Shown in pieces: positions 11,400-30,030 of a stretch of DNA of 64,000 nt. How positions within the stretch are numbered: the stretch's first letter is position 1; every line of letters begins with the position of its first letter. The stretch comes from Alphaproteobacteria bacterium (lineage in GTDB: Bacteria; Pseudomonadota; Alphaproteobacteria; SHVV01): the NCBI GenBank assembly GCA_965261735.1, contig OZ253470.1, positions 2,656,001-2,720,000 of the forward strand. The letters are read 5' to 3'. The position numbers and the translations under genes were made by a program. The notes under the pieces are model-generated. The model worked only from the letters and a program-made list of their open reading frames with translations, did not search any database and was not told the DNA's origin.

Positions 11400-11402
11400 T
11401 AG

Positions 11403-11794
11403 CAGGCTGCTGAAAAAGTCCTCGCCTTTGCAGTTGTGACATGATTCTGTGATTCCTTCGAGTGATGGAGGATGGCATGCGGGGTCGAGATCAAAGCAGT
11501 GGCAATTTATTCAGCTACGTAGACTTGGAAGAGCGTGTTCCGGATGATCATCCGCTGCGTCTGATCCGTGAGATCGTGAACGACGTATTGGGGTCTCTAT
11601 CTTCGGAGTTCGAGACGCTTTATTCCCACATGGGTCGCCCATCGATCCCGCCGGAGAAGCTTCTTCGAGCGTTACTGTTGCAGGCGTTTTATTCGATCCG
11701 CTCGGAGCGTCAGCTGATGGAGCAGCTAAACTTCAACATGCTGTTTTGCTGGTTTGTGGGGCTTGGGCTGGACGATGGCGTGTGGGACGCCAGC
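11403..11794 (+). mobile_element. IS5-family element left end with truncated transposase (ATG 11477)
   Basis: Left end CAGGCTGCTGAAAAAG after CTAG; LFSYVDLEERVP..HPLR, GRPSIPPEKLLRALLLQAFYSIRSERQLMEQL (DUF772-like); breaks off at about 11794. Confidence 0.85.
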
Positions 11795-12762
11795 GCACGC
11801 AGGAACATTGGCTCGTTGGGTGCTCGCCCTGCCGTCAGACGAACGAAGAACTCGTGTCCCTCATCGGTCAGCGCAATGTGGCGAGGCTTGCCGGTCTTGG
11901 TGAACCGAACGAGTAACGTGCGGCTTTCCGAATTGAGGTCCGACACCTCCATCGCGGTGAGCTCGCCGTACCGCGCGCCCGTGTACAAGGCAGCTCGTAC
12001 CGGGGCGCGAAAGTCAGGCCTGCATGCGTTGATAAGCCGCACCGCCTCATCCGTCGATAGGAACCGCACCCGCGGTGCATCGACATTCGCGAACGGCTTG
12101 ACCCGCCGCCAAGCCCCGTTGCTTACGGCGTGGCCTTCGCGGTACGCAAAGTTCAGCGTTGCCTTGAGCACGGTGAGCGCGCGGTTGGCAGTGGATCGCC
12201 GCCGGCGGATACCCTCGGGATCGCTGGGCTGACTTCGGTATCTCTGTGGCTGGCCTCGCCCGGTGCGCGTCTTGGGGGCCCGTTCTGCTAGGTGGGAATG
12301 CCATTTCCGGATTGTCCCTGCGTCGAGCGTCGAAAGCTCGATCTCGCCGATGGTGGGGATGATCTCGCACTCGGCTACCCGTTGGGTCTCCTGGAAAGCC
12401 CTTGTGTGGCTCACGTCGCCGTCCAGGTAGTGACGAACGGCATCGCCTACTGAGTAGGGCCCCCGAGCAGCAGGGCTTGTCTGCGCCTCGCACCAGGCGC
12501 GTGCACCGTCAAGTGCCTGGGAGTAATCGAGGATGGCTGTGCCATCGGCCTCGAGTGCGTCGTCAGCGGATCCCAGTGCTTTGGTCACGTAGGAGCGGTT
12601 GGGCTTCCTCCAGCGAACGATCCATGTGCCGCCGTCCGCGCCCTTCCGATAGCCGAGGTGCGCGCCGCGGTCGATGGCACGCCAGTAAGGGGCCTTGCGT
12701 GGCGGGAGTTTCGACCGCGCGTTTCGCGTTGTAATAACCGCCTCGTTGACGTGGCGCCCCAT
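11795..12762 (-). pseudogene. tyrosine recombinase/integrase, C-terminally truncated
   Basis: Arm-binding N-terminus (PYWRAIDRGAHLGYRKG...GTWIVRW), RFLS..E..RL, AALYTGARYGEL, TKTGKPR. The HxxR and catalytic Tyr region is lost at the IS5 junction. Confidence 0.88.
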
Positions 12763-12773
12763 CGACTGGCTCA

Positions 12774-12792
12774 GTCTCCACTATTTCTCTAC
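12774..12792 (+). repeat. putative integrase arm-type site (GTCTCCACTATTTCTCTAC)
   Basis: 19-bp direct repeat, one mismatch, with 14633-14651; internal ~11-bp tandem unit TCTC(C/T)ACTA; lies between int and the att core. Confidence 0.65.
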
Positions 12793-12936
12793 TATATTCC
12801 CACGAACAGCGGTGGACAAGGCGAGCAATAAAGGACTAAAAACCAAGGGAACGGCCGGTTTTGTTTGTTCGTGGAAGTGCGTTAAAGTGCGCTTTTCCGC
12901 CCTCTCACGGCGAAAACAGGGGTTCGATTCCCCTAG

Positions 12937-14583
12937 GAGCGTGCGCCGCAGAAAGGTCCGCGCGGCAAAGTTGATAGCGGACGGGTTGTGGGTGGATTTG
13001 CGCAGGGGGAAGTATGATCCGATACGCCAGTTGCGTGTGGGAACTCCCGATGCCGACCACGTTTCGTGCCTACCAGCCGGACCAACCCTTGCTTTTGCCG
13101 CCGGACTTGCAGGAGTGGGTTTCCCCAGGGCACCTGGCTCATCACGTCAGCGATGTGGTCGATGCACTGGACTTGACGGCGTTCTATGCGCCCTACGAGG
13201 GGGACGGTCGACGCAACGCCCCCTACGAGCCGTCGATGATGGTCAAGGTGCTGATCTATGCCTACGCGACGGGCACATTCTCCTCGCGCGCGGTGGCGAG
13301 GAAGCTGGAGGAGGATGTAGCGTTTAGGATGCTCGCGGCGGGCAACTTCCCGCAACATCGCACGGTATGTGAGTTCCGACGCCGACATCTGGCGGAGTTC
13401 AGCGAGCTGTTTGTGGGGGTGGTGCAGGTGGCGCGCGAGATGGGACTGGCGCGGTTCGGCAAGCTCTCGGTCGACGGGACGAAGGTGCGAGCGAACGCGA
13501 GCAAGCGCAAGGCGATGAGCTATGAGCGGATGGGCAAAGAGGCGGCTCGCTTGCAGGCGGAGATCGAGGCGCTGCTGACGACGGCGGGGATGGTGGACGC
13601 CGAAGAAGACGAGCGTTGGGGCGAGGATTTCCGGGGCGACGAGTTGCCCGAGGAGTTGCAACGCAGGGAGAAGCGCCTGGCGGCGATCCAGGCAGCCAAA
13701 GCGCGTTTGGAGGCGGCGCAACGCGGGCGCGACGATGAGCGCGGGCGCGAGCCGGGGCAGGACCGCAATCCCCGGGGCGGGCGGCCTTACAAGCGGGCCT
13801 ACGGCGAGCCCGAGCCGAAGGCGCAGAGCAATTTCACCGATCCCGAGAGCCAGATCATGAAGACCAGCAGCGAGGGGTTCCAGCAGTGCTACAACGCGCA
13901 GATGGCGGTCGATGGGGAGCACCAGATCATCGTCGCGACTCAGGTGGGGCCACAGGCCAGCGACCAGGGTCAGCTGGTGGGGATGCTCGACGAGATCAAC
14001 GAGACGTTTGGGGTCGAGCCTGCGGTGGTACTGGCCGATGCGGGCTACTGCAACGAGCCGGATCTGTTGGAGCTGGAAGATCGCGGCATCGACGCGCACG
14101 TAGCGCTGGGGCGTGAAGGCAAGTCCCAGGTGGCGGTCGACCCGGCCCGGCTCCCTGCCACGCACCGCATGGGTGAGAAACTGGCGAGCCCCGCGGGCAA
14201 AGCCCGGTACGCGCAACGCAAGTGGCTCTCGGAGGCGCCGAACGGGTGGATCAAGGAGGTGCTCGGATTCCGACGATTCAGCCTGCGAGGCTTGGCGAAG
14301 GTGCGCGGCGAGTGGGACCTCGTGTGCTTGGCGTTGAACATCAAGCGGATGGGGACGGTGGCCACGTGCTGAGGCAGGTGCTGGCCTGCCAACGCACTTG
14401 ATCCGGGGCGCGCAGTGCCCATCGACCGCGTATGAAACGCGAATCTCTTCCCTTCCGGCCTTCCGGTCTGGGATTTCCATCCCAGAGTCGGGCGGGCCAG
14501 ATATCCACACTCGGGCCAAAATCCCACCTCTCCGGCGGCCGCGCGCCAATCGCCCAACATCAAAACTTCTACGGCGCACGCTC
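12937..14583 (+). mobile_element. IS1182-family insertion sequence (1647 bp)
   Basis: 17-bp TIR GAGCGTGCGCCG(C/T)AGAA; CTAG duplication at 12933-12936 and 14584-14587. Confidence 0.92.
13050..14372 (+). CDS. IS1182-family transposase
   Basis: LLPPDL.EW...HLA, PYEP.MMVKVLIYAYATG.FSSR, VDGTKVRANAS, FTDPES.IMK, YNAQ, ADAGY, E..NGWIK..LGFRRFSLRG. Confidence 0.92.
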   Translation: MPTTFRAYQPDQPLLLPPDLQEWVSPGHLAHHVSDVVDALDLTAFYAPYEGDGRRNAPYEPSMMVKVLIYAYATGTFSSRAVARKLEEDVAFRMLAAGNFPQHRTVCEFRRRHLAEFSELFVGVVQVAREMGLARFGKLSVDGTKVRANASKRKAMSYERMGKEAARLQAEIEALLTTAGMVDAEEDERWGEDFRGDELPEELQRREKRLAAIQAAKARLEAAQRGRDDERGREPGQDRNPRGGRPYKRAYGEPEPKAQSNFTDPESQIMKTSSEGFQQCYNAQMAVDGEHQIIVATQVGPQASDQGQLVGMLDEINETFGVEPAVVLADAGYCNEPDLLELEDRGIDAHVALGREGKSQVAVDPARLPATHRMGEKLASPAGKARYAQRKWLSEAPNGWIKEVLGFRRFSLRGLAKVRGEWDLVCLALNIKRMGTVATC

Positions 14584-15898: not shown

Positions 15899-16786
15899 TC
15901 ACACTACGTTGAAGTGGTCGGGGACGCCGGCCGGCCATACGTCGCCCCAAAGCTGCATGCCGCCGTCGATGGCCAGCACCTCCCCGGTGACGAATTGGCC
16001 GCTGCCGGCCGATAGGTACACCACGCCTTGGGCGACGTCCCAACCCTCGCCCAAGCGGCGCATTGGATTGCTGTCCTGAAATCGCGCGGTCGCCTCGGGC
16101 GCGTAGAATTTTAGCCCTTCCGAAGCGATCGAACCGGGCGCGAGGCAGTTCGCCCGAATGTTCAGCGGCGCCCACTCCACGGCCACCGTCTTGGTCAGGC
16201 CGATGACGCCCGCGCGCGCCGCGCAGGTATGCGCGACCTGCGGCATGCCCCGCGTGACGACCGCGACGATGTTGACGATGTTTCCGGGCTCGGCCCGGTC
16301 GCGCCAACGCCGCGCGGCGCCCTGCATCATGTACCAGGTTCCGTTCAGGTTGAGGTCGATGACGGCGTGCCACCCCTTGTGGCTGAAATCGATCGCATCC
16401 TGAGCGAATTGGCCGCCTGCGTTGTTGACGAGCGTATCCAACCGACCAAAACGCTCCCAGGTTTCGTCGAGCACGCGATCCACCGCTTCCGGGTCGCGGA
16501 TCGACATGGGTATGGGGGTGACGCGCGCTCCGACGATCCCGGCCGCCTCGTCGGCAGCCTCCCGCAGGCGCTCCTCGCGGCGCCCACAGATGACGACCTG
16601 CGCGCCGAGCCGCGCCAGCAGGAACGTGGTCACGCGCCCCAGTCCGGTGCCGCCACCCGACACGATGAAGACCTGACCGTCGAGGAGATCGGGCCGGAAC
16701 ACGGTCGGGACGCGGGCCAGCTCCGCCATCGTGTGCTCGAGCTTGACGCCCGCGCCGCCCTCGCTCGGAGTCGATGCCTTACCCAT
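15899..16786 (-). CDS. SDR oxidoreductase (2,4-dienoyl-CoA/trans-2-enoyl-CoA reductase-like)
   Basis: SGGGTGLG, NNAGGQF, AHTCAARAGV, IDGG. Confidence 0.88.
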   Translation of the reverse strand: MGKASTPSEGGAGVKLEHTMAELARVPTVFRPDLLDGQVFIVSGGGTGLGRVTTFLLARLGAQVVICGRREERLREAADEAAGIVGARVTPIPMSIRDPEAVDRVLDETWERFGRLDTLVNNAGGQFAQDAIDFSHKGWHAVIDLNLNGTWYMMQGAARRWRDRAEPGNIVNIVAVVTRGMPQVAHTCAARAGVIGLTKTVAVEWAPLNIRANCLAPGSIASEGLKFYAPEATARFQDSNPMRRLGEGWDVAQGVVYLSAGSGQFVTGEVLAIDGGMQLWGDVWPAGVPDHFNVV

Positions 16787-17151
16787 GGTCCGGGTCTGTC
16801 CTCATCACCGCTACAGTTGGGTCGATTCGCGTCGCCGCCGCAGTTTTACCGTTCGCGACCGCGAGTGCCAGGCATTCACCGCCAGAGTCCACGAAACCTG
16901 AGCTGTCATGGTTTCAGATGGCGCCGACATGCCCCATTCGGGAGCGCCGGGAGCCGCTAGTGACGACGCTATTACTTGTATAAAGAATCCGCAAAACAGT
17001 ATATGGGTGAGCGCCTTGTGTGCAACGGGCGAGCCCGTTTCAGGAGCCCGGACCGCCGGACAAGCCAACATGCAGGGGCCACGCCCCTCTCGTTCCCCTG
17101 TACCAACCTACAAAAGAAACTCATCCCGGCCAATGACAGGAGGAAGACCCA

Positions 17152-18174
17152 ATGCTGACAGCACGGCCCACTGAAATAGCTGCTCGTGGAAGCAGGTGGT
17201 ATGGCGCCGCCATCGTCGCCGCCATCGGCTTTGCCGCATTCCTGCTCGCAGATGGTTCAGCCCATGCGCAATCGGCGAAACTAGGCTCGCCGACCCCGAT
17301 CAAGATGCTCTCTGTGCCTTACTTTTCGCCCGAGCTGATCGCGCAGGACAGGGGTTTCTTCAAGAAGTACAACCTTGAGGTCGAGTTCGTTAAACAGGTG
17401 GCCCAGGGCACGGCAGGAATCCCCGCGATCGTCGCCAACCACGTACAGACGGGTCAGGGGTTCGGCGCGCCGCCCATCATCCAGGCCTTGGCCGGCGGCG
17501 CGGAAGTGACGGCTATATTTGCCGGGATCGTTTCGACCGATGGCGACTTCCGGCTCTATGCGCTGGCCGACAGCGGTATCAAGACCGCGCAGGACGTCGT
17601 CGGGAAGACCGTCGGCATCCACAATTTCGGCTCGTACGCCGACTATGCGCTGCGCGGCTTCGTGCATAAGAGCGGTATTGGGATCGATCAGGTGAAGCGC
17701 TTGACGGTGCCGCTGCCGACGATGTGCCAGGCGCTGCTGTCCAAACAAGTCGACATTGTCGCGATGTACAGCCTCTTTTACATCCCTTGCGTGAGACAGA
17801 ATCCGGACAAGCTGCACCTCCTCGCCAAGGACAACGAGGGCCTCCCGGCTTCGGCCTTCCTGTACTCGGCCTATGTCTTCAGCAACGACTACATCAAGGA
17901 ACGGCCCGATGTGGTGCGCGCCTTCGTCGCGGCGCTCAATGACGCAACCGGTTTCGTTCAGGGCAACCCTGACGCGGCCAAGGAGATCATCTCCAAGAAC
18001 ACCGGCATTTCAGCCGATCTCCTGACCGTCCCCACGTTCGCCAAGGGTGGCTGCGTGAGTACCAAGGCGGCATCGGACTGGGTTAAGGTGCTGACGGAAT
18101 TCGACGCGATCAAGGCCGGCAGCGTCGATTCGACCGGGTGGGTATCAAACAGCTTCAACCCGAACTGCTCGTAG
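17152..18174 (+). CDS. ABC transporter substrate-binding protein (SsuA/THI5/NitT-like)
   Basis: Signal peptide ending AHA; IAQDRGFFKKYNLEVEF, SGIKT..D..GKTVG, PDVVRAFV.A. Confidence 0.85.
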   Translation: MLTARPTEIAARGSRWYGAAIVAAIGFAAFLLADGSAHAQSAKLGSPTPIKMLSVPYFSPELIAQDRGFFKKYNLEVEFVKQVAQGTAGIPAIVANHVQTGQGFGAPPIIQALAGGAEVTAIFAGIVSTDGDFRLYALADSGIKTAQDVVGKTVGIHNFGSYADYALRGFVHKSGIGIDQVKRLTVPLPTMCQALLSKQVDIVAMYSLFYIPCVRQNPDKLHLLAKDNEGLPASAFLYSAYVFSNDYIKERPDVVRAFVAALNDATGFVQGNPDAAKEIISKNTGISADLLTVPTFAKGGCVSTKAASDWVKVLTEFDAIKAGSVDSTGWVSNSFNPNCS

Positions 18175-18211
18175 GAGTCGAGGCAGTCACTTCGGGCTGA
18201 GGAGTGGCAGG

Positions 18212-19087
18212 ATGCCCGGCGCCGGCACCCTTACCGAGGAGCGACGGGCGGCCGACGGAGCCGGGGCCACCGGCCCCCGGCCCGCCGGCGCGCCCCGCGA
18301 ACGCCGGCCCGCACCAGCGACGGCGTCGGCGCGCCGGGGCCGGGCGCTTCTCGTGTCGGCCGTTCCGATCGTGTGCCTATTTCTGCTGTGGGAGCTCACC
18401 TCGCGGGCCGGCTGGCTCAACGCGACGCTCCTCACTCCGCCGTCCCGCGCCCTCTACGAGGTGTGGAACTACGTCATAACCGGTGCGATCCTTCCCCATC
18501 TCGAGGCGAGCCTGAAGCGCGGGGGTGCGGGGCTGGCGATCGCCATCGCGGTCGGAATCCCGCTCGGCCTGTTCATCGGGTCGGTCAAGGCGGTCTCGCG
18601 TGCGGCCTCCCCGGTGATCGAGTTCCTGCGCCAGTTGCCGCCGCTCGCCATGCTGCCCGTGTTCCTGCTTTTTCTCGGCCTAGGCTTCCGCGCTCAAGTA
18701 GCGATCGTGATATGGGCGGCGATCTGGCCGATTTTGCTCAATACGATCACCGGCGCCCGCGGTGTCGATGTGCGGCTCATCAAGGCGGCGCATACCCTTG
18801 GTGCGAGCCGGCGCGACGTGTTCCTGAAGGTCGCCCTTCCGGCGGCCCTGCCGATGACGATGACGGGGATCCGCTTGGGGGCTTCCTACGCCTTTCTCGT
18901 GCTCGTCGCGGCCGAGATGGTCGGCGCGGACTCGGGCCTCGGTTTCCTCATCCTCAACAACCAGTACACCTTCCGCATCCCACAAATGTATGCCGCCATC
19001 CTCATCCTCGCGGCCCTCGGCGTGGCTCTCAACTACAGCCTTATGTTTCTCGAGCGCCGGTTGACGCCGTGGCAAGGTTACACATGA
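18212..19087 (+). CDS. ABC transporter permease (SsuC/TauC-like)
   Basis: LPPLAMLP, EAA-like LIKAAHTLGAS, LVAAEMVGA..GLG. Confidence 0.9.
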   Translation: MPGAGTLTEERRAADGAGATGPRPAGAPRERRPAPATASARRGRALLVSAVPIVCLFLLWELTSRAGWLNATLLTPPSRALYEVWNYVITGAILPHLEASLKRGGAGLAIAIAVGIPLGLFIGSVKAVSRAASPVIEFLRQLPPLAMLPVFLLFLGLGFRAQVAIVIWAAIWPILLNTITGARGVDVRLIKAAHTLGASRRDVFLKVALPAALPMTMTGIRLGASYAFLVLVAAEMVGADSGLGFLILNNQYTFRIPQMYAAILILAALGVALNYSLMFLERRLTPWQGYT

Positions 19088-19920
19088 GTACGGGCGCGGC
19101 CGAGGGGGCTCCGGCGACGGCACGGCCCGCTGCAGCCACCGCGGCGCCGAAAATCGTGGTCGAGGGCGTCGCCAAGGAATTCACGACCGCCACCGGCGAG
19201 ACGTTCGTCGCCCTCGACAACATCGAACTCACGGTCGGGCTGCATGAGCTCGTCAGCCTCGTCGGGCCGAGCGGTTGCGGCAAGACCACGCTGCTCGAGA
19301 TTCTCGCCGGGCTACAGTTCCCGACCCACGGGCGCGTCCTCATGGACGGCGCCGAGATCAAGCGGCCGGGACCGGACCGGACCGTGGTGTTTCAGCATTT
19401 CGCGCTTTTTCCCTGGCGCACGGTCGTGGCCAACGTGGAGTTCCCGATGGAGGCCGCGCGGGTCGGACGCGCCGAGAGGCGGGCGCGCGCCCTCGAGTAC
19501 CTCGGCATGGTCGGCCTCGAGGGCTTCGGAGATCGCCATATCTGGCAGCTCTCGGGCGGGATGCAGCAACGCGTGGCGCTCGCCCGGGGGATGGCGTGCA
19601 CACCGGAAGTGATGCTGATGGACGAGCCCTTCAGCGGCGCCGACGCGATCACGCGCGAGCTGCTCCAGGACCAGCTCGCACGGCTGCGCCGGGCGACGCG
19701 CCAGACCATCGTCTTCGTCACGCATAGCGTTGACGAGGCGATCCGCCTGTCGGACCGGATCGTGGTCATGGGAACCAGGCCCGGACGCGTCGTCGACGTG
19801 TTCGACGTCGACGACGAAAGCCGCGCGCACGCCGACAGAACGGCCGAGCTGCGCGACGCCGTCTGGGCGCTGCTGAGGCAGGAGATCGTGCCCCTCGTGG
19901 ACGCCGCCGAGGCGCCATGA
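19084..19920 (+). CDS. ABC transporter ATP-binding protein (SsuB/TauB-like)
   Basis: GPSGCGKTT, LSGGMQQR, DEPF, VTHS; ATG 19084 overlaps the permease stop. Confidence 0.92.
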   Translation: MSTGAAEGAPATARPAAATAAPKIVVEGVAKEFTTATGETFVALDNIELTVGLHELVSLVGPSGCGKTTLLEILAGLQFPTHGRVLMDGAEIKRPGPDRTVVFQHFALFPWRTVVANVEFPMEAARVGRAERRARALEYLGMVGLEGFGDRHIWQLSGGMQQRVALARGMACTPEVMLMDEPFSGADAITRELLQDQLARLRRATRQTIVFVTHSVDEAIRLSDRIVVMGTRPGRVVDVFDVDDESRAHADRTAELRDAVWALLRQEIVPLVDAAEAP

Positions 19921-20795
19921 GCCGGGTGATCGATTTCCGGGCGCGCCCCAACACACCGGAGTGGGCGCGCTACCTTTCCCGGCGCCGCAAGGCCATTCGC
20001 TCCGAGGCCGGGGCGGGCTTCGGCGACTACCATGCCCCCGAGGAGACGCTGGAGCAGTACGTCGCCCAGCTCGACGGCGCCGGCATCGAGCGCGCCGTGT
20101 TCGCCGCTCGTAATCGCTCGGGGAGCGACCCGGAGTGGACGTTGACCAATGACTTCGTCGCCGATTGCGTGCGCGCGGTTCCCGACCGCATCGTCGGCTT
20201 TGCCGGCGTGGACGCGAGCGAGCCCGACATGGCGGCAGCGGAAGCGCGTCGAGCCGTACTCGAACTCGGGCTGCTCGGCGTGTGCTTCGACCCCTTCGCG
20301 CTCGGGGCGGCGCCCGACGATCCCCGGTTCGATGGCATCTGTGGCGCCTGTGACGAGCTCGGCGTGCCGGTTGTCATCACGCTCGGCGGGTGGCCCGGCA
20401 TCGCGGCGCCGCTGCGCGATTCGAGCCCGCTGGCGATCGACGTCCTCGCCAAACGCTTCCCCCAGCTCACCATCATCGCCTCACATGCCGGGTGGCCCTT
20501 TGTGCAGGAGATGATCGCGGTCGCGTGGCGCTGCGAGAACGTGTACTTCGAGAACTCCTTCTACCACTTCGCCCCGGGCGCCGAGGTCCTCGTCGAGGCC
20601 GCAAACACCATGATCGGCGACAAGATCCTCTACGCCTCCGCCTACCCTTTCGCGCCGCTCGGCGAGACGCTCGAACGGTTTCGCGCGCTGCCCTTCGCGG
20701 CCGACGTGGCCGAGCGCGTGCTGTTCGCGAACGGTGAGGGTTTGCTGGCACGTATTGCCGCGGCCGCCGCCACGCCGGCCCGCTCGGCACCATAG
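19917..20795 (+). CDS. amidohydrolase family 2 fold protein (non-canonical motifs)
   Basis: IDFRAR, GIERAV, PDRIVGFAGVD, FPQL.II.SHAGWP, NVYFE, YASAYP. Confidence 0.8.
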   Translation: MSRVIDFRARPNTPEWARYLSRRRKAIRSEAGAGFGDYHAPEETLEQYVAQLDGAGIERAVFAARNRSGSDPEWTLTNDFVADCVRAVPDRIVGFAGVDASEPDMAAAEARRAVLELGLLGVCFDPFALGAAPDDPRFDGICGACDELGVPVVITLGGWPGIAAPLRDSSPLAIDVLAKRFPQLTIIASHAGWPFVQEMIAVAWRCENVYFENSFYHFAPGAEVLVEAANTMIGDKILYASAYPFAPLGETLERFRALPFAADVAERVLFANGEGLLARIAAAAATPARSAP

Positions 20796-20809
20796 GGTCG
20801 GGCCGCCGG

Positions 20810-21607
20810 ATGGATCTCCAGCTCGCGAAGCAGCGGGCGCTCGTCGTCGGGGCGACCGGCGACATCGGCGGCGCCGTGGCGACGGCGCTCTCGGGCGAAG
20901 GGGTTCGGGTCGTGCTCGGCGGACGCAACGGTGCGCGCCTCGAGTCGTTAGCGCATGAGCTCGGTCCCCGATGCGGCGGGACGGTGAGCGTCGACCTCGC
21001 CGATGGCGCATCGGTCCAGACCGCTATCGACGAAAGCTATCGCCTGCTCGGCGAGGTCGACATTCTCGTCTGCGCGGCGGTCGATCAGACCTACGGCTCG
21101 CTGTGGGAAATGGAGCGCGATGCGGTGGAGCGGGCGTTCCGGGTCAAGTATGTGGGCTCGATCGATGTCTGCCGACGTGTCGGCGAGCGCATGGCGCGGC
21201 GCCAGTCGGGTGTGATCGTCAACCTCATCGGCATCGCGACCGAGGTTCTCTATCCGGCGAATCCGGTGGGCGGCGACGTCAACATCGCCACGGCACGCTT
21301 TACCCGCTTTCTCGCGGCCGACCTCGCGCAGTCCGGCGTCCGCGTCCTCGGCGTGAGCCCGGGATTCGTCCACGGCCGCCGACTTGCCGCGTTTCTCGAG
21401 GCCGGGCGTGCCGATCTCGAGGCCAGCATCCCGCTCGGCCGCATCTGTTCGCCCGGCGAGATCGCCAACACGGTGACCTTCCTCGCCTCGCCGCGGGCGA
21501 GCTACGTGACCGGCACCATCGTCACCGTGGATGGCGGACTGTCACTGCACGTCCCGCCCGGCGGCACCGGCCCTGCCGCCGGTTCGAGAAGGAGAAGCGA
21601 GGCATGA
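20810..21607 (+). CDS. SDR-family oxidoreductase (atypical, no YxxxK)
   Basis: GATGDIGG, VSPG, GTIVTVDGG; GGDVN where YxxxK is expected. Confidence 0.8.
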   Translation: MDLQLAKQRALVVGATGDIGGAVATALSGEGVRVVLGGRNGARLESLAHELGPRCGGTVSVDLADGASVQTAIDESYRLLGEVDILVCAAVDQTYGSLWEMERDAVERAFRVKYVGSIDVCRRVGERMARRQSGVIVNLIGIATEVLYPANPVGGDVNIATARFTRFLAADLAQSGVRVLGVSPGFVHGRRLAAFLEAGRADLEASIPLGRICSPGEIANTVTFLASPRASYVTGTIVTVDGGLSLHVPPGGTGPAAGSRRRSEA

Positions 21608-22047
21608 CGGACGCCAGCGATACCGCATCGCGCCAAGAAATCACCGAGGTCATCGCCAAATATGCCGTCTACATCGACGCCGGCGAGTTCGACCAGCTCG
21701 AGTCCCTGTTCGCCGAAGACGCCGTCTTCGACATCACGCCCGATCCCGGCATCGTGCCGGTGCCCGTACGCGGCGGGCGTCAGATTCGCGAGGCCCTCGA
21801 GGAGCGCTACCGTCTCGTGTCGCCACAGGCACAGCGGCGGCATCTGATGACCAACACGGTCATCGACGAGCTCGCCGGCGACCGAGCCCGGGCGCGCTCG
21901 TTTCTCACGGTGCTATCGGTGCCGAAGTCGGCCGGCGGCGGCGTGGAACTACGCGGAACCGGCGTCTACAACGACACCTTGGAGCGGAGAAAGCAGATGT
22001 GGCTGTTTACGGAGCGTCGACTCGTGCTCGACGTGTTGGGCACATGA
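21604..22047 (+). CDS. SnoaL/NTF2-like family protein
   Basis: I...YA..ID..E...L..LF.EDA, RRHLMTN, G.Y.D, W.F.ER. Confidence 0.85.
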   Translation: MTDASDTASRQEITEVIAKYAVYIDAGEFDQLESLFAEDAVFDITPDPGIVPVPVRGGRQIREALEERYRLVSPQAQRRHLMTNTVIDELAGDRARARSFLTVLSVPKSAGGGVELRGTGVYNDTLERRKQMWLFTERRLVLDVLGT

Positions 22048-22514
22048 GCGACATCGACGACAGGACCCGCGCGCGGTTCGAGATCACGCAAATGATCTCG
22101 ACCTATGGCAACTGCCTCGACCGGGGCGACTTCGACGGCCTCCAGGCTCTGTTCACCGAGGACGCCGCCTTTCACGTCGGCCCCAATCCCGGCATCGAGT
22201 CGCCGCTCATCGGTGCGCGAACCATTCGTGAATCGATAGAGCGCCGGTGGCGGTTGTTTTTCGAGGAGGCGCAGCGCCGTCACGTCATGGCGAACATCGT
22301 GGTCGAGGAGCTTGCTGAGGCGGCGGCCCGCACGCGCACCGTCATCATGGTTTTCGAAGTCAAGAGGAAACCCGGCAGTCCGATCAATGTGCACGGCCTG
22401 GGCGTTTTCGACGATGTCCTGGAGCGCCACGACGGCCGCTGGCTCTTCAAGGAACGGCATCTGACGCTCGACCGCGTGGACTACTTCGCACCCGGCTGGA
22501 TGAGCCCCGACTGA
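22044..22514 (+). CDS. SnoaL/NTF2-like family protein
   Basis: YG..LD.GD...L..LFTEDA, RRHVMAN, GRWLFKER. Confidence 0.85.
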   Translation: MSDIDDRTRARFEITQMISTYGNCLDRGDFDGLQALFTEDAAFHVGPNPGIESPLIGARTIRESIERRWRLFFEEAQRRHVMANIVVEELAEAAARTRTVIMVFEVKRKPGSPINVHGLGVFDDVLERHDGRWLFKERHLTLDRVDYFAPGWMSPD

Positions 22515-22523
22515 GGTTGGCGC

Positions 22524-23279
22524 ATGCGGTTTGCCGGCAGGGCCTTGATCGTTACCGGCGGCGGCTCCGGAATCGGCGCCGCCGTGGCGCGCCGGTTCGC
22601 GGCCGAGGGCGGCAGGGTCGCGGTCCTTGACCTCGATTCGAACCGCGCCGCCGCGGTAGCCGACGCCCTAGAGGGTGGCATCGCCGTGCAGGTGGACGTC
22701 GCCGACGAGGCCTCGGTCGCCGCTGCCGTAGGCGCCGCGTACGAGCACATGGGCAAGATCGACTGCGTCTGCAATGCCGCCGGCCACCTCACCGCGGGAT
22801 CGATCGACACCTACCCGCTCGCTGAATGGACACGGATGCTCGCCGTGCACGCCACAGGGACCTTCCTGGTCTGTCGCGCGGCGCTGCCCCACCTGCGCGC
22901 CGCCGGCGGCGGCTCGATCGTCAATATCTCGTCGGTGGGCGCGCTCATGGCGCGCAAGCACATCGGTGCCTACTCGGCCGCGAAGGGCGCCGTGCTCGCG
23001 TTCTCGCGTCAGCTCGCGTTCGAGCTCGGCGACGACGGCATCCGCGTCAACGTGGTCGCGCCCGGCACGGTGAAGACGGGAATGACGGTCCCGTTGTGGA
23101 CCGAGCGCGGCGGTGGCGACTACGAGGTTGGCGCCGAGCGCGCGGCATCCGATTCGATCCAGCGCCGCATCGCCGAGCCCGAGGAAATCGCGGCGAGCGT
23201 GTGCTTCCTGCTCTCCGCCGACGCCGGCTTTTATACCGGCGCGGTGCTGGTGCCGGACGGTGGCATGACCGCGATATAG
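22524..23279 (+). CDS. SDR-family NAD(P)-dependent oxidoreductase
   Basis: TGGGSGIG, NISS, YSAAK, VPDGG. Confidence 0.92.
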   Translation: MRFAGRALIVTGGGSGIGAAVARRFAAEGGRVAVLDLDSNRAAAVADALEGGIAVQVDVADEASVAAAVGAAYEHMGKIDCVCNAAGHLTAGSIDTYPLAEWTRMLAVHATGTFLVCRAALPHLRAAGGGSIVNISSVGALMARKHIGAYSAAKGAVLAFSRQLAFELGDDGIRVNVVAPGTVKTGMTVPLWTERGGGDYEVGAERAASDSIQRRIAEPEEIAASVCFLLSADAGFYTGAVLVPDGGMTAI

Positions 23280-23293
23280 CTCGGGAAGACTCC

Positions 23294-23491
23294 ATGCGCA
23301 TCGTCATCAACCGCGAGCTGTGCATTGGCGCCGGGCAGTGCGTCAGCGCCGCACCCGAGGTGTTCGCGCAAGACGAGGACGACGGACTCGTCTTCCTATT
23401 GCTTGAGCGCCCGCGGTCGGAGCTACATGATTCGGTGAGGGCAGCGGTTCGAACGTGCCCAGTCAGGGCCATTTCAGCGGAGCCAGAATGA
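23294..23491 (+). CDS. ferredoxin ([3Fe-4S] type, P450-associated)
   Basis: CIGAGQC...APEVF...CPVRAI; 65 aa; overlaps the P450 start. Confidence 0.9.
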   Translation: MRIVINRELCIGAGQCVSAAPEVFAQDEDDGLVFLLLERPRSELHDSVRAAVRTCPVRAISAEPE

Positions 23492-24735
23492 CGAAACCGA
23501 CGCACCAAGAAAGAACTGAGTTGGCCGACGAGCGGTCAGACCTACCCTCTTTCCCCTTCTCCCGGGCCTTTCCCTTGGACCCGCCGCCCGAGTATGCGCA
23601 GCTGCGGGCCGAGCGCCCGGTGACCAAGGCCAGGCTGTGGGACGGGTCGACCGCCTGGATCGTGACCCGCTACGACGACGTTCGCGACGTGCTCAGCGAC
23701 GACCGCTTCAGCAACGTCCCCAGCCAGCCGGGCTACCCCAAGTTGACGCCGACGCGCGATGCCATGCTGCTCAAGGAAGAACAGACCTTCGTCCGGATGA
23801 ACCCGCCCGAGCACGGCATTTTCCGCCGCATGCTCACCAAGGAGTTCATGGTCGGCCGGATGAACGCGCTCCGCCCCGATATCCAGCGCATGGTCGACGC
23901 GCTGATCGACCAGATGATCGCGACGGGTCGGCCCGCCGATCTCGTCGAAGCCCTGGCGATCCCGCTGCCCTCGTTGGTGATCTCGGAGATGCTCGGCGTG
24001 CCCTACGAGAATCACGCGTTCTTCGAGGAGCGCAGCAAGGCGCGGCTCGCCCTCGACGTCGACCCGGAGATCCCCGTCGCCGCGGGTCGCGACGTCATGA
24101 ACTACCTCGACGAGCTGTTCACGAAACGGGAAGAGGACCCGGGCGCGGGTGACGATATCATCAGCCGCCTGGTGATCGATCAGATCAGGCCCGGTCATTT
24201 GCAGCACGACGAGGCGGTCCGAATGGTCGAGCTCCTGCTCCGCGCGGGACACGAGACGACCTCGAACCTGATCGGTATGGGGCTGCTGTCCCTGTTCGAA
24301 CACCCGGAGCAATTGGCGCTGCTGCGCGCCGACCCCTCGCTCATGAGCGGTGCCGTCGAAGAAATGCTGCGCTACACCAGCGTGGTCCACTACATCGGCG
24401 CGCGCGCCGCCACGGCCGACGTCGAAGTTGGCGGCCAGACGATAGCGGCGGGCGAAGGCGTCTACGCGCTGATCAGCGCCGCCAACCGAGACGGCGGGGC
24501 GTTTCCCGAGCCCGACGCCTTCGACATCCGTCGCGAGGCGCGCCACCACGTCGCCTTCGGATACGGCGTGCATCAATGCCTCGGCCAGACCCTGGCGCGC
24601 GCCGAGCTCGAGATCGTGTTCGCCACCCTGATGCGCCGCCTGCCCGAGCTACGCCTCGCCGTCCCCTTCGAAGACGTCGGCTACAAGCACAACTTCTTCG
24701 TCTACGGCGTCGTCGGGCTCCCCGTGACCTGGTAG
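23488..24735 (+). CDS. cytochrome P450 (CYP105-like)
   Basis: I-helix AGHETT, EEMLR, heme motif FGYGVHQCLG. Confidence 0.95.
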   Translation: MTKPTHQERTELADERSDLPSFPFSRAFPLDPPPEYAQLRAERPVTKARLWDGSTAWIVTRYDDVRDVLSDDRFSNVPSQPGYPKLTPTRDAMLLKEEQTFVRMNPPEHGIFRRMLTKEFMVGRMNALRPDIQRMVDALIDQMIATGRPADLVEALAIPLPSLVISEMLGVPYENHAFFEERSKARLALDVDPEIPVAAGRDVMNYLDELFTKREEDPGAGDDIISRLVIDQIRPGHLQHDEAVRMVELLLRAGHETTSNLIGMGLLSLFEHPEQLALLRADPSLMSGAVEEMLRYTSVVHYIGARAATADVEVGGQTIAAGEGVYALISAANRDGGAFPEPDAFDIRREARHHVAFGYGVHQCLGQTLARAELEIVFATLMRRLPELRLAVPFEDVGYKHNFFVYGVVGLPVTW

Positions 24736-24737
24736 CC

Positions 24738-26411
24738 ATGCCCGACGGCACAAACCAGCAAGCCCCTGACGAGATCGGCGTCACCACCCTCGGTGATTTG
24801 TTGCTGGGTGCCGCGCGGCGATGGCCCGAGCGCGAGTTCATCGTGCTGCCGGACGCGCGCTTTACATATAGCGACATGGCCGAGCGGGTGATACGCAGGG
24901 CCCGTGGCCTAATGGCGCTGGGTACGCGGCCTGGGGACCATGTCGGTATCTTTCTGCCGACCTGCATCGAGTTTACCGAGGCCCTTTTCGCCATCGCGCT
25001 CGCCGGCGCGGTCCCAGTGCTGATCAATGCGCGCTACCGCGGTGCGGAGCTGCGCTACCTGATCGAGAATTCCGATTCGGTGGCCGTGCTGACGACCGGC
25101 CGGGTGGCCGATGGCGTGAATCTACTGGAGCGGCTGAACGAGGAAATCGGCGACGCGGGCTCGACTCAGGACCCGCCCCAACTCGACGTGCCGGGTCTGC
25201 CCATGCTGCGCCGCATCATCACAATGACCGGTGACGCTCCGGGCGCTCTCGGGTCCGACGCGCTCGACCGCTTGGCCGAACAGGTGCCGGTCGAGGCCGT
25301 CCACGAACGACGTTCGCGGGTGCGCGTGCGCGATACCGGGCTCATCCTCTACACCTCCGGCACGACCTCCAACCCCAAGGGCTGCCTGTTCAGCCATGAG
25401 GCCATCGTGCGCAACGGGCAGGAGCTGGGACGGCGCTACGACATGACCGGCGAGGACCGATTCTGGTCGCCGCTCGCGATGTACCACATCGGCGCGATCA
25501 TGCCGATAACGGCCGTCCTCGCGGTCGGCGGCACGTATCTGACCACGCCCTACTTCGATGCGGGCCGCGCGCTGCGTATGCTCGAGGACGAGAAGGTCAC
25601 GATCAACTATGTGTGCTTCTGGACGATGCTGGCCGACCTCATGAACCATCCCGACTTCGCGACGACGGACCTGTCGGCGACGCGGCTCATGAACAGCAAT
25701 TTGGCGCTACAGCCCGAGGCCTTACAGGAGCAGCTCGCACGGGCCATGCCGCATGCCGTTCAGGTCAGCACCTACGGGTTGACCGAGGCAGCCGGCACCG
25801 TCTCCACCAACGGCGGCAATGACTCCTACAAGGCGCGCACGACCCGGCTCGGCTCGCCCCTGCGAGGTGTTGGGGTCCGTATCGTCGACGCCGAAGACCG
25901 CGACGCTCCGGCCGGTGAGCACGGCGAGATTATCGTCAACGGCTACGGGATCATCGACGGCTACTACAAAGACGCCGAGAAAACGGAGGCCGCGCTGCGC
26001 GGCGGGTGGCTGCATACGGGAGACATCGGCTCGCTCGACGAGGCTGGCGACGTGATGTTCCACGGCCGCGTGAAAGACATGCTGAAGGTCGGCGGCGAGA
26101 ACGTCGCCGCCCTCGAGGTCGAGGCGTTCATCGGCGACCACCCGGCGGTCAAGCTGTGCCAGGTTGTGGGCTGTCCGGACTCCCGCCTGGTGGAGGTGCC
26201 GGCGGCGTTCGTCGAACTCAAGCCGGACGCGACGGCGAACGAGGACGACATCATCGCTTTTTGCCGCAACAGGATCGCGAGCTTCAAGGTGCCCCGGCAC
26301 GTCCGTTTCGTCACAGAGTGGCCGATGGGGGCGAGCAAGATCCAGAAGTTCAAGCTCCGCGATGGCTTGATCGCAGAGCTCGGCATCGAGGACACAACGC
26401 GGATCACCTAG
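24738..26411 (+). CDS. acyl-CoA synthetase (AMP-binding enzyme)
   Basis: YTSGTTSNPKG, YGLTE, LHTGDIG, GRVKDMLKVGGEN, SKIQK. Confidence 0.93.
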   Translation: MPDGTNQQAPDEIGVTTLGDLLLGAARRWPEREFIVLPDARFTYSDMAERVIRRARGLMALGTRPGDHVGIFLPTCIEFTEALFAIALAGAVPVLINARYRGAELRYLIENSDSVAVLTTGRVADGVNLLERLNEEIGDAGSTQDPPQLDVPGLPMLRRIITMTGDAPGALGSDALDRLAEQVPVEAVHERRSRVRVRDTGLILYTSGTTSNPKGCLFSHEAIVRNGQELGRRYDMTGEDRFWSPLAMYHIGAIMPITAVLAVGGTYLTTPYFDAGRALRMLEDEKVTINYVCFWTMLADLMNHPDFATTDLSATRLMNSNLALQPEALQEQLARAMPHAVQVSTYGLTEAAGTVSTNGGNDSYKARTTRLGSPLRGVGVRIVDAEDRDAPAGEHGEIIVNGYGIIDGYYKDAEKTEAALRGGWLHTGDIGSLDEAGDVMFHGRVKDMLKVGGENVAALEVEAFIGDHPAVKLCQVVGCPDSRLVEVPAAFVELKPDATANEDDIIAFCRNRIASFKVPRHVRFVTEWPMGASKIQKFKLRDGLIAELGIEDTTRIT

Positions 26412-26426
26412 GCGAAGGCGCCGGCT

Positions 26427-26990
26427 TCACGATCTCCCCGAACGGCGCACCGGATCGCTGCCGTCCCAGCCGCGCGCCGCCTCGCGCATCACCGCGAAAG
26501 CGCCCAGCAGGGCGCCGCTGGGCTGGATAATCTCGACCAGCGGCTCCGATTCCTTCATTTGCGCATAGAGGAACGGGCCCCTGGCTTTGGGCATGGTCCC
26601 CTCCTGAACGATAGCCGCGCCGGCGCGCGCGCAGGTCTCGCGCGCCATCTCAAGATCGCCGACGAGGATGCACAGGTGGTGCAGGCCCTCGCGTCCCTCC
26701 TGCTGCCAAGGCAGGTAGATGGAGGGCGCGTCATTGTGTTGGTGCGCGAGCTCGATCTGGATATCGCCCCAGTAGCCGATCGCGACCGCCACATCGATGT
26801 CACAGGGTTGGCCGCGAAAGCTCAGGCTCTCGAATTTGACGTGGTCGATGACGAAGAAGGGGCCGGCCCCCACGACCTCGGTCCAGAAGCGAAGGGCACC
26901 CTCGAAATCGCGCGGCAGGAAGGAGAGCTGCATCACCTCGCCGAGGCCGGCTATGGACTGCGGCAGCGCGTGCGTACGCAGGATCGTCAT
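26427..26990 (-). CDS. VOC/glyoxalase family protein
   Basis: MQL.F.P.DF..AL.FW....G.GPF, QIEL, GLHHL, EII. Confidence 0.8.
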   Translation of the reverse strand: MTILRTHALPQSIAGLGEVMQLSFLPRDFEGALRFWTEVVGAGPFFVIDHVKFESLSFRGQPCDIDVAVAIGYWGDIQIELAHQHNDAPSIYLPWQQEGREGLHHLCILVGDLEMARETCARAGAAIVQEGTMPKARGPFLYAQMKESEPLVEIIQPSGALLGAFAVMREAARGWDGSDPVRRSGRS

Positions 26991-27039
26991 GTTGCGGCCG
27001 CTTCCGGATCCACAAGGCCGGCCACGCCTGTGCTGCCCC

Positions 27040-28299
27040 TCATCGGGCGGCGCTGCGCGACCCGATCGCCTCCCGGTCGACACCACCCCAGTCCTCGACG
27101 TACGCCTCGAGCACGGGCTCGACCCTGAGGCCCTCCTCGATCCGGTCGGCGCCGATCCGGCGGTCGAGCTCCTGGTGCCAGTGATAGAGCCGCCGCTCCT
27201 GGTAGTTGAGCGGCATGCCGCCGAAACCCGAGGACTCGACTGACCTCTGGATTGCCTCGGCGAACTGCAGGTCCTCCTCGAGAATTCGGTCGAAATTTTC
27301 GAGGCGGGTGTCCCAAACAGCGGGCCGCGGCCCGTCGCCCCAACTCAATCCGAACCAATGGACCTCGATGACCATGGTCGTGAGGTCGACCGGCCAAAAG
27401 CAGATGAAGGGCATGCCTGCCGGTGCCACCGGGGTTACCAGGTTGGGGTACAGGTTGAGGGAAATGTTCGCGTTGGCGACGATGGGATCGAGGTCCGCGA
27501 CCTCGGGCAGGCCGACGGTACCGGGATCAACCCAGTTTTCGCGCCGGTTCGGCGTGACCATGCGCGAGTGCCCGCCGCGCCACAGCGTGATGAACGCGGC
27601 GCGATGATCGAGGAAGCGCTCGACCGAATTCATGTGGATCGACTTGAGGTGGTAGACCTCGAGGAACGCGTCCAGAAGGACCTTGATGTTGCACTTGAGC
27701 GTAAACGCCTTCTTGTCGACCAGCCGCAGCTCTTCGGGGTGGAAGTCCTGGAGGTGGTCCCAGATCGGTCGAATGCTGTCGGCCAAGGGCTCGGCGTCGG
27801 GATTGAGGTTGACGAAGTGCCATTGGCCAAACGATTCGCATCGCACCTCGATGAGCGATCGGCACGACATGTCGAGGCCGACGAAATCGCGCTGATCGCG
27901 AAGCGCCACCAGGTGCCCCGCCAAGTCATAGGTCCATCCGTGGTATTTGCAGGCGAGCTTGGGCGCCCCGCCGCGCTCCTCGGTGACGACCGGCGCGCCG
28001 CGGTGGCGGCAGGTGTTGTAGAAGCAGCGCACGCGATCGTCCTCGCCGCGTACGAAGAACAACGGCTCGCCCACCCGCTCCCAGCGAACGTAATCGCCGC
28101 TCTTGGGAACCTCGTCGCCATGGATGGCGTAGAGCCACGCATCGCGCCACAGATGCTGCCTCTCGAGGTCGAAGAAGCCGGGTTCGACATAGCGCCCGCC
28201 CGGTATATCCGGCAGACGCGGGAAGCCTTCGGGCGGCTCGGTCCGGCCCGCCTCGAAGCTCATGCCGGCCGTTATGCGGCCGACTTCCATCGCGTCCAT
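27040..28299 (-). CDS. Rieske ring-hydroxylating oxygenase alpha subunit
   Basis: CRHRG...CKYHGW; mononuclear Fe motif EVYHLKSIH; EED. Confidence 0.92.
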   Translation of the reverse strand: MDAMEVGRITAGMSFEAGRTEPPEGFPRLPDIPGGRYVEPGFFDLERQHLWRDAWLYAIHGDEVPKSGDYVRWERVGEPLFFVRGEDDRVRCFYNTCRHRGAPVVTEERGGAPKLACKYHGWTYDLAGHLVALRDQRDFVGLDMSCRSLIEVRCESFGQWHFVNLNPDAEPLADSIRPIWDHLQDFHPEELRLVDKKAFTLKCNIKVLLDAFLEVYHLKSIHMNSVERFLDHRAAFITLWRGGHSRMVTPNRRENWVDPGTVGLPEVADLDPIVANANISLNLYPNLVTPVAPAGMPFICFWPVDLTTMVIEVHWFGLSWGDGPRPAVWDTRLENFDRILEEDLQFAEAIQRSVESSGFGGMPLNYQERRLYHWHQELDRRIGADRIEEGLRVEPVLEAYVEDWGGVDREAIGSRSAAR

Positions 28300-30010: not shown

Positions 30011-30030
30011 GGCGGTGCGGCTTACGCCCG

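Follow-up and report, generated by a model that had tools for sequence, protein, structure and literature searches.

The amidohydrolase superfamily is a classic example of how many reactions can evolve on a single barrel with a metal at its centre. LigW, γ-resorcylate decarboxylase, 2,3-dihydroxybenzoate (2,3-DHB) decarboxylase, ACMSD and LigJ depend on Zn or Mn. The LigI/COG3618 proteins are metal-independent lactonases that act on carboxylated lactones and are often paired with dehydrogenases of the short-chain dehydrogenase/reductase (SDR) family. LigI keeps its His residues and the Asp of strand β8 as base; in LigI and the related decarboxylases, this Asp is the general base or proton shuttle. 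Here, we describe two proteins of the Amidohydro_2 family (PF04909), AH1 (positions 19917–20795, + strand) and AH2 (47536–48378, + strand), encoded in a 64,000-nucleotide stretch of an alphaproteobacterial genome (contig OZ253470.1, 2,656,001–2,720,000), referred to as the window. The source genome is a single contig of 5.03 Mb with a G+C content of about 66%. AH1 (encoded in locus 1) and AH2 (in locus 2) belong to a distinct, conserved and functionally unassigned subfamily that has lost the metal ligands. Their genes are part of a recurring module that also encodes an importer, an SDR and NTF2-fold enzymes.

Fold and active site of AH1 and AH2

AH1 and AH2 score 117 and 106 bits against PF04909 (gathering cut-off 26.4 bits) and are 44% identical over 276 residues (BLASTP). 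No NCBIfam model matches either protein at E 1e-5. The original prediction had picked out both genes, with their unusual motifs, from the sequence, and both are confirmed as intact PF04909 proteins with the substitutions described. The motifs are IDFRAR, VITLG, SHAGWP and YASAYP in AH1 and IDFRLR, VITVG, SHAGWP and YASAFP in AH2, which at 47536 also has the G(V/L)C(F/V)D and ENSFYHFAPG segments it was said to share with AH1. The two proteins were aligned with relatives that keep the ligands (P0113, P0108 and the IDxHTHA...FHTG...AHPSFPW...FGSDYP sister family of the same phylum). R8 and R10 align with the histidines of HxH, T155 with the β5 His and A242 with the β8 Asp, so that both AH1 and AH2 have lost the canonical residue at four of five active-site positions (the two HxH histidines to Arg, the β5 His to Thr and the β8 Asp to Ala). 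In HMMER alignments, A242 faces the Asp of 3NUR and 4INF. The ligands of the canonical metal-dependent enzymes (HxH on strand 1, His on strand 5 and Asp on strand 8) are therefore absent. The His that follows strand 6 is present as H190 of SHAGWP, and the claim that this motif alone keeps a His holds, with H190 the retained β6 His by alignment.

The AlphaFold (AF2) model of AH1, built on 27 homologs, has a predicted local distance difference test score (pLDDT) of 91.5 and a predicted template modelling score (pTM) of 0.90, and its alternating strands and helices form a (β/α)8 barrel. At least 500 PDB entries match the fold at E ≤ 0.001, and every match listed is a barrel of the amidohydrolase family. 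Strands 1 to 6 span residues 5–9, 59–63, 92–97, 122–124, 152–155 and 186–189, and R8/R10, R65, D99, D125, T155 and H190 are located at or just after their C-terminal ends, the usual catalytic face of this fold. As these conserved polar residues (R8, R10, R65, D99, D/E125 and H190) sit at the strand ends of a confidently predicted barrel, the pattern in the model would fit a working pocket rather than decay.

Conservation in the RxR family

A profile search covering 1.84 billion representatives gave 801 (at 50% identity) with E ≤ 1e-30, and residues were counted in the best 150 of these. About 120 of these sequences carry the RxR signature. R8 occurs in 125 and R10 in 128 of the 132 sequences having an N-terminus, R65 in 120 of 150 and H190 in 149 of 150; Asp occurs at position 242 in just seven. 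Positions 155 and 242 are non-ligating in most of the set (T/M/S and A/S/G, respectively). Across 27 homologs down to 33% identity, D6, R8, R10, R65, D99, H190 and R205 are invariant, and E212 is kept within the clade of AH1 and AH2. H8, H10, H155 and D242 are all retained in the nearest canonical sister family; relative to it, the RxR proteins carry H8R, H10R, D65R, H125D/E, H155T/M/S and D242A/S/G. Changes at these six positions argue for a site that has been rebuilt, not eroded.

We define the RxR (BB4693-like) subfamily by R8, R10, R65, D99, D/E125, H190 and the absence of Asp at 242. The set is present in both window copies and in all 16 representatives of their clade, as well as in the copies from Azospirillum, Aliarcobacter, M. 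nodulans and Caballeronia. The sole solved structure is BB4693 (PDB 3IRS/3K4W), named 'uncharacterized protein BB4693'. No characterised member was found in PDB names, in NCBIfam (E 1e-5) or in a literature search, and source names are generic for all 113 homologs. The distinct, uncharacterised subgroup that had been proposed thus survives as a conserved ligand-less branch, with the correction that a structure, 3IRS, dates from 2009. The labels 'amidohydrolase family protein' and 'metal-dependent hydrolase' are probably misleading for these proteins, which form a large, widespread and functionally unstudied family that probably acts on a small organic anion.

An offshoot from two Pseudosulfitobacter plasmids (L086 and L087) and from genomes G116 and G287 (L052 and L053) lacks the first Arg and the β6 His; one example has IDFGATPP and Pro at position 190. 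The Pseudosulfitobacter gene has an AMP-binding enzyme on one side and two amidase genes on the other, alongside a PotD-type importer. A homolog on Haloferax volcanii pHV4 was considered as an RxR member from a model organism and rejected, as it is a canonical HxH protein.

Gene linkage of the AH1/AH2 clade

Loci were drawn from species-representative genomes and metagenomes, and hidden Markov models (HMMs) of the neighbours were built from Pfam-verified genes and run on six-frame open reading frames (ORFs). A scan of genome contigs with a single protein returned mostly distant or partial matches. The AH proteins were dereplicated at 90% identity to 42 clusters, and a tree was calculated for the 41 representatives of at least 220 residues, with row L036 (genome G383, unpublished), on which none of the conclusions rests, as one of its outgroup rows. 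One clade of 16 representatives (support 96/96) contains both AH1 and AH2. Its members come from metagenome-assembled genomes (MAGs) of Alphaproteobacteria/Rhodospirillaceae and of a betaproteobacterium, from Candidatus Microthrix, Acidimicrobiales and Euzebyaceae, and from metagenome contigs. Within 5 kb, SnoaL_4 is found in 14 of the 16 loci, an SDR in 13 and an ATP-binding cassette (ABC) ATPase in 12. Outside the clade, one of 25 representatives has a SnoaL_4 neighbour. The usual order is AH–SDR–SnoaL_4, or AH followed directly downstream by two SnoaL_4 genes. One exception (L065) has no SnoaL_4 match, but just 520 bp of downstream sequence; the other (L072/L073) has an adjacent TAXI-TRAP importer and, instead of SnoaL_4, a SnoaL_2 protein 3.3 kb upstream. 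The importer varies across the clade (NMT1 type, SBP_bac_6/8 type or TRAP), and the AH and the NTF2 protein are constant. The co-occurrence of SnoaL and ABC genes anticipated by the original prediction is borne out as a strong enrichment across phyla, with the SnoaL_4 linkage confined to one RxR clade. Its module of ABC importer, AH and SnoaL protein does recur, and the SDR has to be added as an equal part of the core.

In the source genome, both RxR copies have SnoaL_4 within 5 kb, compared with one of the 28 other PF04909 matches (30 in all). The regions within 5 kb of a SnoaL_4 match add up to only 2.0% of the genome, and the pairing of AH with SnoaL_4 exceeds chance. AH1 and AH2 are 27 kb apart, with no other PF04909 match within 27 kb of either; the next one is 37 kb from AH2. 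A P450 is found near the AH gene in the window and in L041, L062, L067 and L069, and CoA transferase or ligase genes recur within the clade.

Genes of the two loci

Locus 1 is one co-directional string on the + strand, running from the binding protein at 17152 to the end of an acyl-CoA synthetase at 26411. An SDR gene (15899–16786, − strand; adh_short_C2 162.7 bits) diverges from it and has an ortholog at the same place in the loci of related alphaproteobacterial MAGs (L039, L040, L042, L044 and L054). The string starts with a periplasmic solute-binding protein of the NMT1/THI5-like family (SsuA/TauA type; 17152–18174, PF09084 93 bits), an ABC permease (18212–19087, true start perhaps further in; BPD_transp_1 101.7 bits) and an ABC ATPase (19087–19920, start uncertain between 19087 and 19156; ABC_tran 108.3 bits). 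AH1 follows, and directly 3′ of it lies an SDR (20810–21607, adh_short_C2 141.9 bits) whose orthologs, identified with the local HMM, are directly downstream of the AH gene in betaproteobacterial and actinobacterial loci (L045–L047 and L055–L069). Two SnoaL_4 proteins of NTF2 fold come next: SnoaL-A (21604–22047, PF13577 82.1 bits), whose start overlaps the SDR stop, and SnoaL-B (22044–22514, 67.9 bits), whose start overlaps the SnoaL-A stop. The remaining genes encode a second SDR (22524–23279, adh_short_C2 200.3 bits), a small [3Fe/4Fe-4S] ferredoxin (23294–23491, Fer4_13 50.2 bits), a cytochrome P450 (23521–24735, longest ORF from 23455; PF00067 107.5 bits), of which the ferredoxin is likely the partner, and the acyl-CoA synthetase (24738–26411, AMP-binding 239.8 bits), which has an ortholog downstream of the SnoaL pair in loci of the L039 type.

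Locus 2, also on the + strand, starts with a SnoaL_4 protein upstream of the importer (42171–42647, PF13577 59.5 bits). The importer consists of an SBP_bac_8 solute-binding protein (PhnS/PotD/AfuA-like; 42810–43880, PF13416 81.4 bits), an ABC ATPase with a TOBE_2 domain (44193–45287; ABC_tran 117.9 bits and TOBE_2 24 bits) and two permeases (45284–46147 and 46128–47006). The permeases score 31.5 and 24 bits against BPD_transp_1, the second just under the cut-off of 26.4 bits, and 248 and 252 bits against the local HMM. A second SnoaL_4 gene (47066–47539, start possibly as early as 47015; PF13577 80 bits) precedes AH2, and an ortholog of AH2 in the same gene order is present in L048. Translational coupling of both AH genes to their neighbours, as originally described, is seen in ATGA overlaps: the AH1 start overlaps the ATPase stop at 19917–19920 and the AH2 start overlaps the SnoaL_4 stop at 47536–47539. 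Downstream of AH2 are a PPOX-type FMN flavoprotein (48472–49074, + strand; PNPOx_N 60.7 bits, and TIGR04025 237.8 bits with a cut-off of 170) and, convergent with the locus, a Rieske oxygenase α subunit (49104–50216, − strand; Rieske and Ring_hydroxyl_A domains). Similar α-only Rieske genes are located at 27043–28299 and in L039.

The importers of the two loci belong to different families, in agreement with the original prediction: locus 1 combines an NMT1/SsuA-like binding protein with one permease, and locus 2 an SBP_bac_8 protein with two permeases and the TOBE_2 ATPase. Finer assignments are not reached. The binding protein of locus 1 falls under the broad Pfam NMT1 family and outside the SsuABC/TauABC type, with 78 bits against the 163.5-bit cut-off of SsuA_fam and 35–37 bits against the 304–490 bits of the taurine-binding models (NCBIfam); its PDB matches to THI5 and TauA are weak. 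That of locus 2 is within the broad SBP_bac_8 family and outside the PotABCD/PhnSTUV type (40–55 bits against NCBIfam cut-offs of 310–636 bits for PhnS2, PhnS, PotF and PotD), and matches 4EDP, 4R72, 6WCE and PotD in the PDB.

All four SnoaL_4 genes in the window are above the gathering cut-off of PF13577 (24 bits). The model of SnoaL-A has a pLDDT of 93.1, and Y20, D25, R79 and H80 are invariant in its alignment. The nearest folds and profiles are a putative scytalone dehydratase, LinA and ActVI-ORFA, with the β subunits of Rieske oxygenases equally close. By both profile and fold, the proteins match LinA, the scytalone dehydratase-like 3EF8, ActVI-ORFA and BaiE; however, identities to the NTF2-fold eliminases and dehydratases are just 16–28%, and Rv3472 and 3B8L, of unknown function, match equally well. 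Y20, D25 and H80 presumably resemble the catalytic residues of LinA/scytalone-dehydratase-type enzymes. Judged from alignment and model, the SnoaL_4 partners look like enzymes. In four actinobacterial or marine loci of the clade (L045, L060, L063 and L069), SnoaL_4 is fused to a carboxymuconolactone-decarboxylase-family domain (PF02627), and in L047 the two domains are encoded by neighbouring genes. A bile-salt pathway, with the AH protein as a taurine- or glycine-conjugate amidase, SnoaL_4 as a 7α-dehydratase of the Hsh2/BaiE type and the SDR as a 3α-hydroxysteroid dehydrogenase, was set aside as speculation because BaiE comes only 50th in the fold ranking and does not appear among the 60 best profile matches listed. 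A paper on Caenibius reports an induced amidohydrolase of unspecified type.

Other RxR clades

The RxR clades outside that of AH1 and AH2 adjoin transporters and enzymes of small organic anions. A sister 'RSR' clade, with the N-terminus ID[LM]RSRP, is located in sulfonate-scavenging operons in three of the four members examined. Azospirillum sp. B510 (L084, plasmid pAB510b) has an ssuA-like gene, AH and ssuD together with sfnG and msuE, and Aliarcobacter cibarius (L088, pACIB) has the order ssuA–ssuD–ssuC–ssuB–AH. In genome G349 (L051), an NMT1_2 importer is followed by AH, a GNAT gene and a sulfite-oxidase-like gene. No paper tying such an amidohydrolase to ssu function was found in a literature search. 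These ssu-operon relatives suggest that part of the RxR family serves sulfur scavenging from organosulfonates, a field with enzyme gaps. For AH1 itself, sulfonate carbon catabolism was considered and dropped, as the window showed no gene for a sulfite exporter, a sulfite oxidase, Xsc or SsuD.

In G364 and G230 (L049 and L050), BB4693-like genes cluster with a four-subunit Sdh/Frd-like complex and α and β subunits resembling class I fumarase, along with a TauE/SafE-family exporter, a LysR regulator and TctC or a thiamine pyrophosphate (TPP) enzyme. This looks like a separate uncharacterised pathway for a dicarboxylate or sulfonate. Uncultured Peptococcaceae MAGs (L002 and L005) carry four RxR-type paralogs in two tandem pairs, all without the canonical ligands, flanking a 631-residue flavin/NAD(P) oxidoreductase of the old yellow enzyme (OYE) type, a LysR regulator and a Na-sulfate/citrate-type (di/tricarboxylate-type) symporter. 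On the Caballeronia plasmid, the order is MR/MLE–AH–SCP2–hydrolase–MFS–FAH.

Genomic setting

Contigs of two public DNA runs (X4 and X7) span 17000–26500 with one to nine differences in each listed contig, and 19 runs from nine studies contain half or more of the sampled words; the region of locus 1 is therefore no assembly artefact. Short contigs of one metatranscriptome RNA-library run (X20) match five places of locus 1 with zero or one difference, and one crosses the junction of the SDR and SnoaL-A. They were not counted as evidence of transcription, as DNA carry-over is possible and the share of sampled words is 0.09.

Upstream of the catabolic island, positions 1–14400 are dense in mobile-element genes: a near-identical pair of DDE_3 transposases (1230–2261 and 8727–9758), two IS1595-type transposases (6982–7923, apparently split, and 10034–11050, whole), an integrase fragment (11713–11988) and an IS4/5-type transposase (13035–14369). 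A homolog of AH1 at E ≤ 1e-30 is absent from all seven genomes of the same family. Together with the preceding run of transposases, this suggests that the island carrying AH1 and AH2 was acquired horizontally. Recent segmental duplication was rejected as the origin of the two copies because of their 44% identity, the different importer families and the presence of separate orthologs in one MAG (L044 and L048).

Between the loci (27000–42200) lies a CoA-dependent catabolic gene set. It comprises two α-only Rieske oxygenases, SDRs, a GntR regulator, the E1 α and β subunits of a 2-oxoacid dehydrogenase and a lipoyl protein; ThuA-like and MaoC dehydratase genes, a CoA-transferase III and a DUF35/OB-fold protein with a thiolase of the SCP-x type; and an enoyl-CoA hydratase and two acyl-CoA dehydrogenase genes. 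At 51618–52858, ORFs of two frames jointly resemble a sensor histidine kinase, with a kinase-like motif in one frame and an ATPase-like part in the other, which suggests a frameshifted or mis-assembled gene. Elsewhere in the source genome there are about 20 further Amidohydro_2 paralogs with the signature (S/G)(A/G)DSH(V/I)xEP...GSD(F/Y)PH. Identical Amidohydro_2 copies are located at 3168504–3169274 and 3781322–3782092, and the gene at 2336418–2337183 is disrupted by both an in-frame TGA and a frameshift.

Proposed role and alternatives

We regard as evenly balanced the proposition that AH1 and AH2 are functional members of an uncharacterised Amidohydro_2 branch, with an Arg triad in place of the metal, in a module that degrades an organic anion. 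This concerns the general statement; for any particular reaction, our confidence is much lower. From the observed fold, substitutions, conservation and linkage, we infer metal independence, anion binding, an order of steps and a type of reaction. R8 and R10 of strand 1 and R65 of strand 2 replace the HxH pair and a neighbouring acid, and the triad would bind and polarise an anionic substrate (a carboxylate, sulfonate or similar) instead of a divalent cation. H190 and two carboxylates (D99 and D/E125) may serve as acid and base. The binding-protein-dependent importer would bring in an organic anion with a hydrocarbon part, the SDR would oxidise one of its hydroxyls, and the NTF2 enzyme or enzymes would dehydrate or isomerise next to the new carbonyl. 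The AH protein would then hydrolyse or decarboxylate the activated intermediate, of β-keto-acid or lactone type, without a metal. An Arg-lined, anion-binding site had been part of the original prediction, and three invariant Arg residues at the modelled strand ends fit it. That prediction is thus confirmed in what it observed and in part supported in its central interpretation, namely for the subgroup, the linkage and the fit of an Arg pocket.

Several observations weigh against this proposal. A metal might still be bound by D99, D/E125, H190 and E212, and the β8 Asp is absent, so that the chemistry proposed is without direct precedent. The cues to the substrate are mixed: the sulfonate/phosphonate-type importers indicate small polar anions, and the P450, acyl-CoA synthetase, CoA transferase and Rieske genes indicate a bulkier hydrophobic acid. 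The window showed no gene for handling sulfite, and no SDR lies within 5 kb of AH2. Of the 25 loci compared outside the AH1/AH2 clade, 10 had a flank of only 1.5 kb. The one with a SnoaL_4 neighbour, a canonical HxH cluster of the IDMHTHA type (L015 of G379 and L019 of G325), has it 0.9 kb downstream (Pfam 59.5 and 65.9 bits); the L015 match fell below the 50-bit threshold for the local-HMM label. At a third locus of the source genome (G000:C1:3554415-3558905), an ADSHV-type PF04909 gene has two SnoaL_4 genes within 3.3 kb, and pairing of PF04909 with NTF2 proteins is therefore not confined to the ligand-less family. A literature search found no biochemical data for any RxR member. It is the missing β8 Asp and the conflict over substrate size that keep our confidence at an even balance.

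Could the barrels be catalytic with a metal held elsewhere? In such a metalloenzyme, D99, D/E125, H190 and E212, for example, would be the ligands and the Arg residues would serve in substrate binding only. All four lie at strand ends; D99, D/E125 and H190 are kept throughout the family and E212 in the clade of AH1 and AH2. The nearest characterised structural relatives are Zn or Mn enzymes, except for the LigI-type lactonase. However, three guanidinium groups would occupy the place that the cation has in the relatives and would make a cation site electrostatically unfavourable; the residues at 155 and 242 in most of the best 150 representatives could not supply ligands; and no metal-chaperone gene is present in the loci. 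We consider such a site unlikely. The loss of four of five active-site residues might instead mark AH1 and AH2 as pseudoenzymes, non-catalytic subunits that stabilise or activate another protein, perhaps SnoaL_4 or the SDR. AH2 is translationally coupled to a SnoaL_4 gene, adjacent RxR paralogs occur in Peptococcaceae and Gemmatimonadaceae loci, and PF04909 offers a precedent in the α subunit of 6,7-dihydroxylumazine isomerase (DHLI), which is reported to be inactive yet needed by the β subunit (PMC12391406). Such precedents adjoin an intact, ligand-bearing paralog, however, whereas AH1 and AH2 have no canonical PF04909 neighbour. The most strictly kept residues (R8, R10, R65, D99, D/E125 and H190) are polar and on the catalytic face, which is a better fit to binding or catalysis than to a scaffold, and in the ssu operons the RxR protein is the sole added hydrolase-fold gene. 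A non-catalytic role appears quite unlikely.

The linkage itself would lose its meaning if the SnoaL_4 proteins were the small (β) subunits of the nearby α-only Rieske oxygenases, with the AH genes close by only because they share a catabolic island. Rieske β subunits are indeed among the best PDB matches of the SnoaL_4 proteins, which also give weak matches to Ring_hydroxyl_B (19–20 bits) and to the small subunit AndAd (32–36 bits), and Rieske α genes are found at 27043–28299, at 49104–50216 and in L039. These scores are nevertheless under the family cut-offs (27 bits for PF00866 and 230 bits for AndAd), and it is with the SDR and AH genes that the SnoaL genes are coupled, whereas the Rieske α genes are non-adjacent and read from the other strand. 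The Microthrix locus (L045) keeps AH–SDR–SnoaL_4 with no Rieske gene within about 6 kb, none was found among the scanned neighbours of L060, L063 and L069, and 14 of the 16 clade loci, which span several phyla, show the linkage to SnoaL_4. We judge this explanation very unlikely.

Returning to the Arg-triad proposal, it may be carried further to the whole family. RxR proteins as true metal-free catalysts, with the triad in the role of the cation and a so far undescribed reaction on organic anions, is a more speculative idea that we hold to be doubtful. In the ssu-linked clade, the RxR proteins could add a new step to the use of organosulfonates. Those of the AH1/AH2 clade could cleave a C–C, C–O or C–S bond together, and possibly in complex, with the NTF2-fold enzymes.

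Comparison with known systems

LigW, γ-resorcylate decarboxylase, 2,3-DHB decarboxylase, ACMSD and LigJ share with AH1 the PF04909 assignment, the (β/α)8 fold and the β6 His. They are the next-best structural matches after BB4693, with TM scores of 0.62–0.70 and 15–20% identity. Unlike AH1 and AH2, they have retained the metal-binding residues of strands 1, 5 and 8, and their chains are longer (305–352 residues). For the LigI/COG3618 lactonases, which offer a precedent for metal-free catalysis in this Pfam family, the LigI-like structure 4i6k is among the Foldseek matches of the AH1 model, and no phmmer match of AH1 to LigI-type chains was found at E ≤ 0.1. AH1 and AH2 differ from the features known for LigI in having Arg at positions 8 and 10 and Ala at 242.

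AibH1 of the AibH1H2 complex is reportedly a ligand-less PF04909 partner subunit. The α subunit of DHLI, a heterotetramer from Cupriavidus sp. LA-1, lacks two Zn-binding His residues, is inactive and is required for β activity; it is encoded beside an intact catalytic paralog to which it is 65% similar (PMC12391406). AH1 and AH2 resemble DHLI α and AibH1 in belonging to PF04909, in having lost metal-binding His residues and in being under selection. They differ from both in having no intact neighbouring paralog and in the conserved Arg triad at the active-site face. No adjacent canonical paralog was found in any locus of the AH1/AH2 clade, where the nearest other PF04909-type genes are about 5 kb (L047) and 6 kb (L062) away.

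The closest described protein, and the best PDB match by both sequence and fold, is BB4693 of Bordetella bronchiseptica (3IRS/3K4W), a structural-genomics entry with the title 'uncharacterized TIM-barrel protein', which matches AH1 over residues 3–280 (phmmer E 9.4e-39) with a Foldseek TM score of 0.80 (3irs_A) and 32% identity. It shares the IDFRLRP motif, the β6 His (SHGNWP) and Ala at the position of the β8 Asp (FGTAYP). It belongs to another clade, however, and the BB4693-like genes of G364 and G230 are without SnoaL_4. No published function for BB4693 was found in a literature search. If active, a branch of hundreds of sequence clusters with three Arg residues in place of metal ligands would be a new catalytic solution in this fold. 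For a family that has had a structure for so long and is still functionally unassigned, the conserved importer–AH–SDR–NTF2 module gives a concrete handle for assignment.

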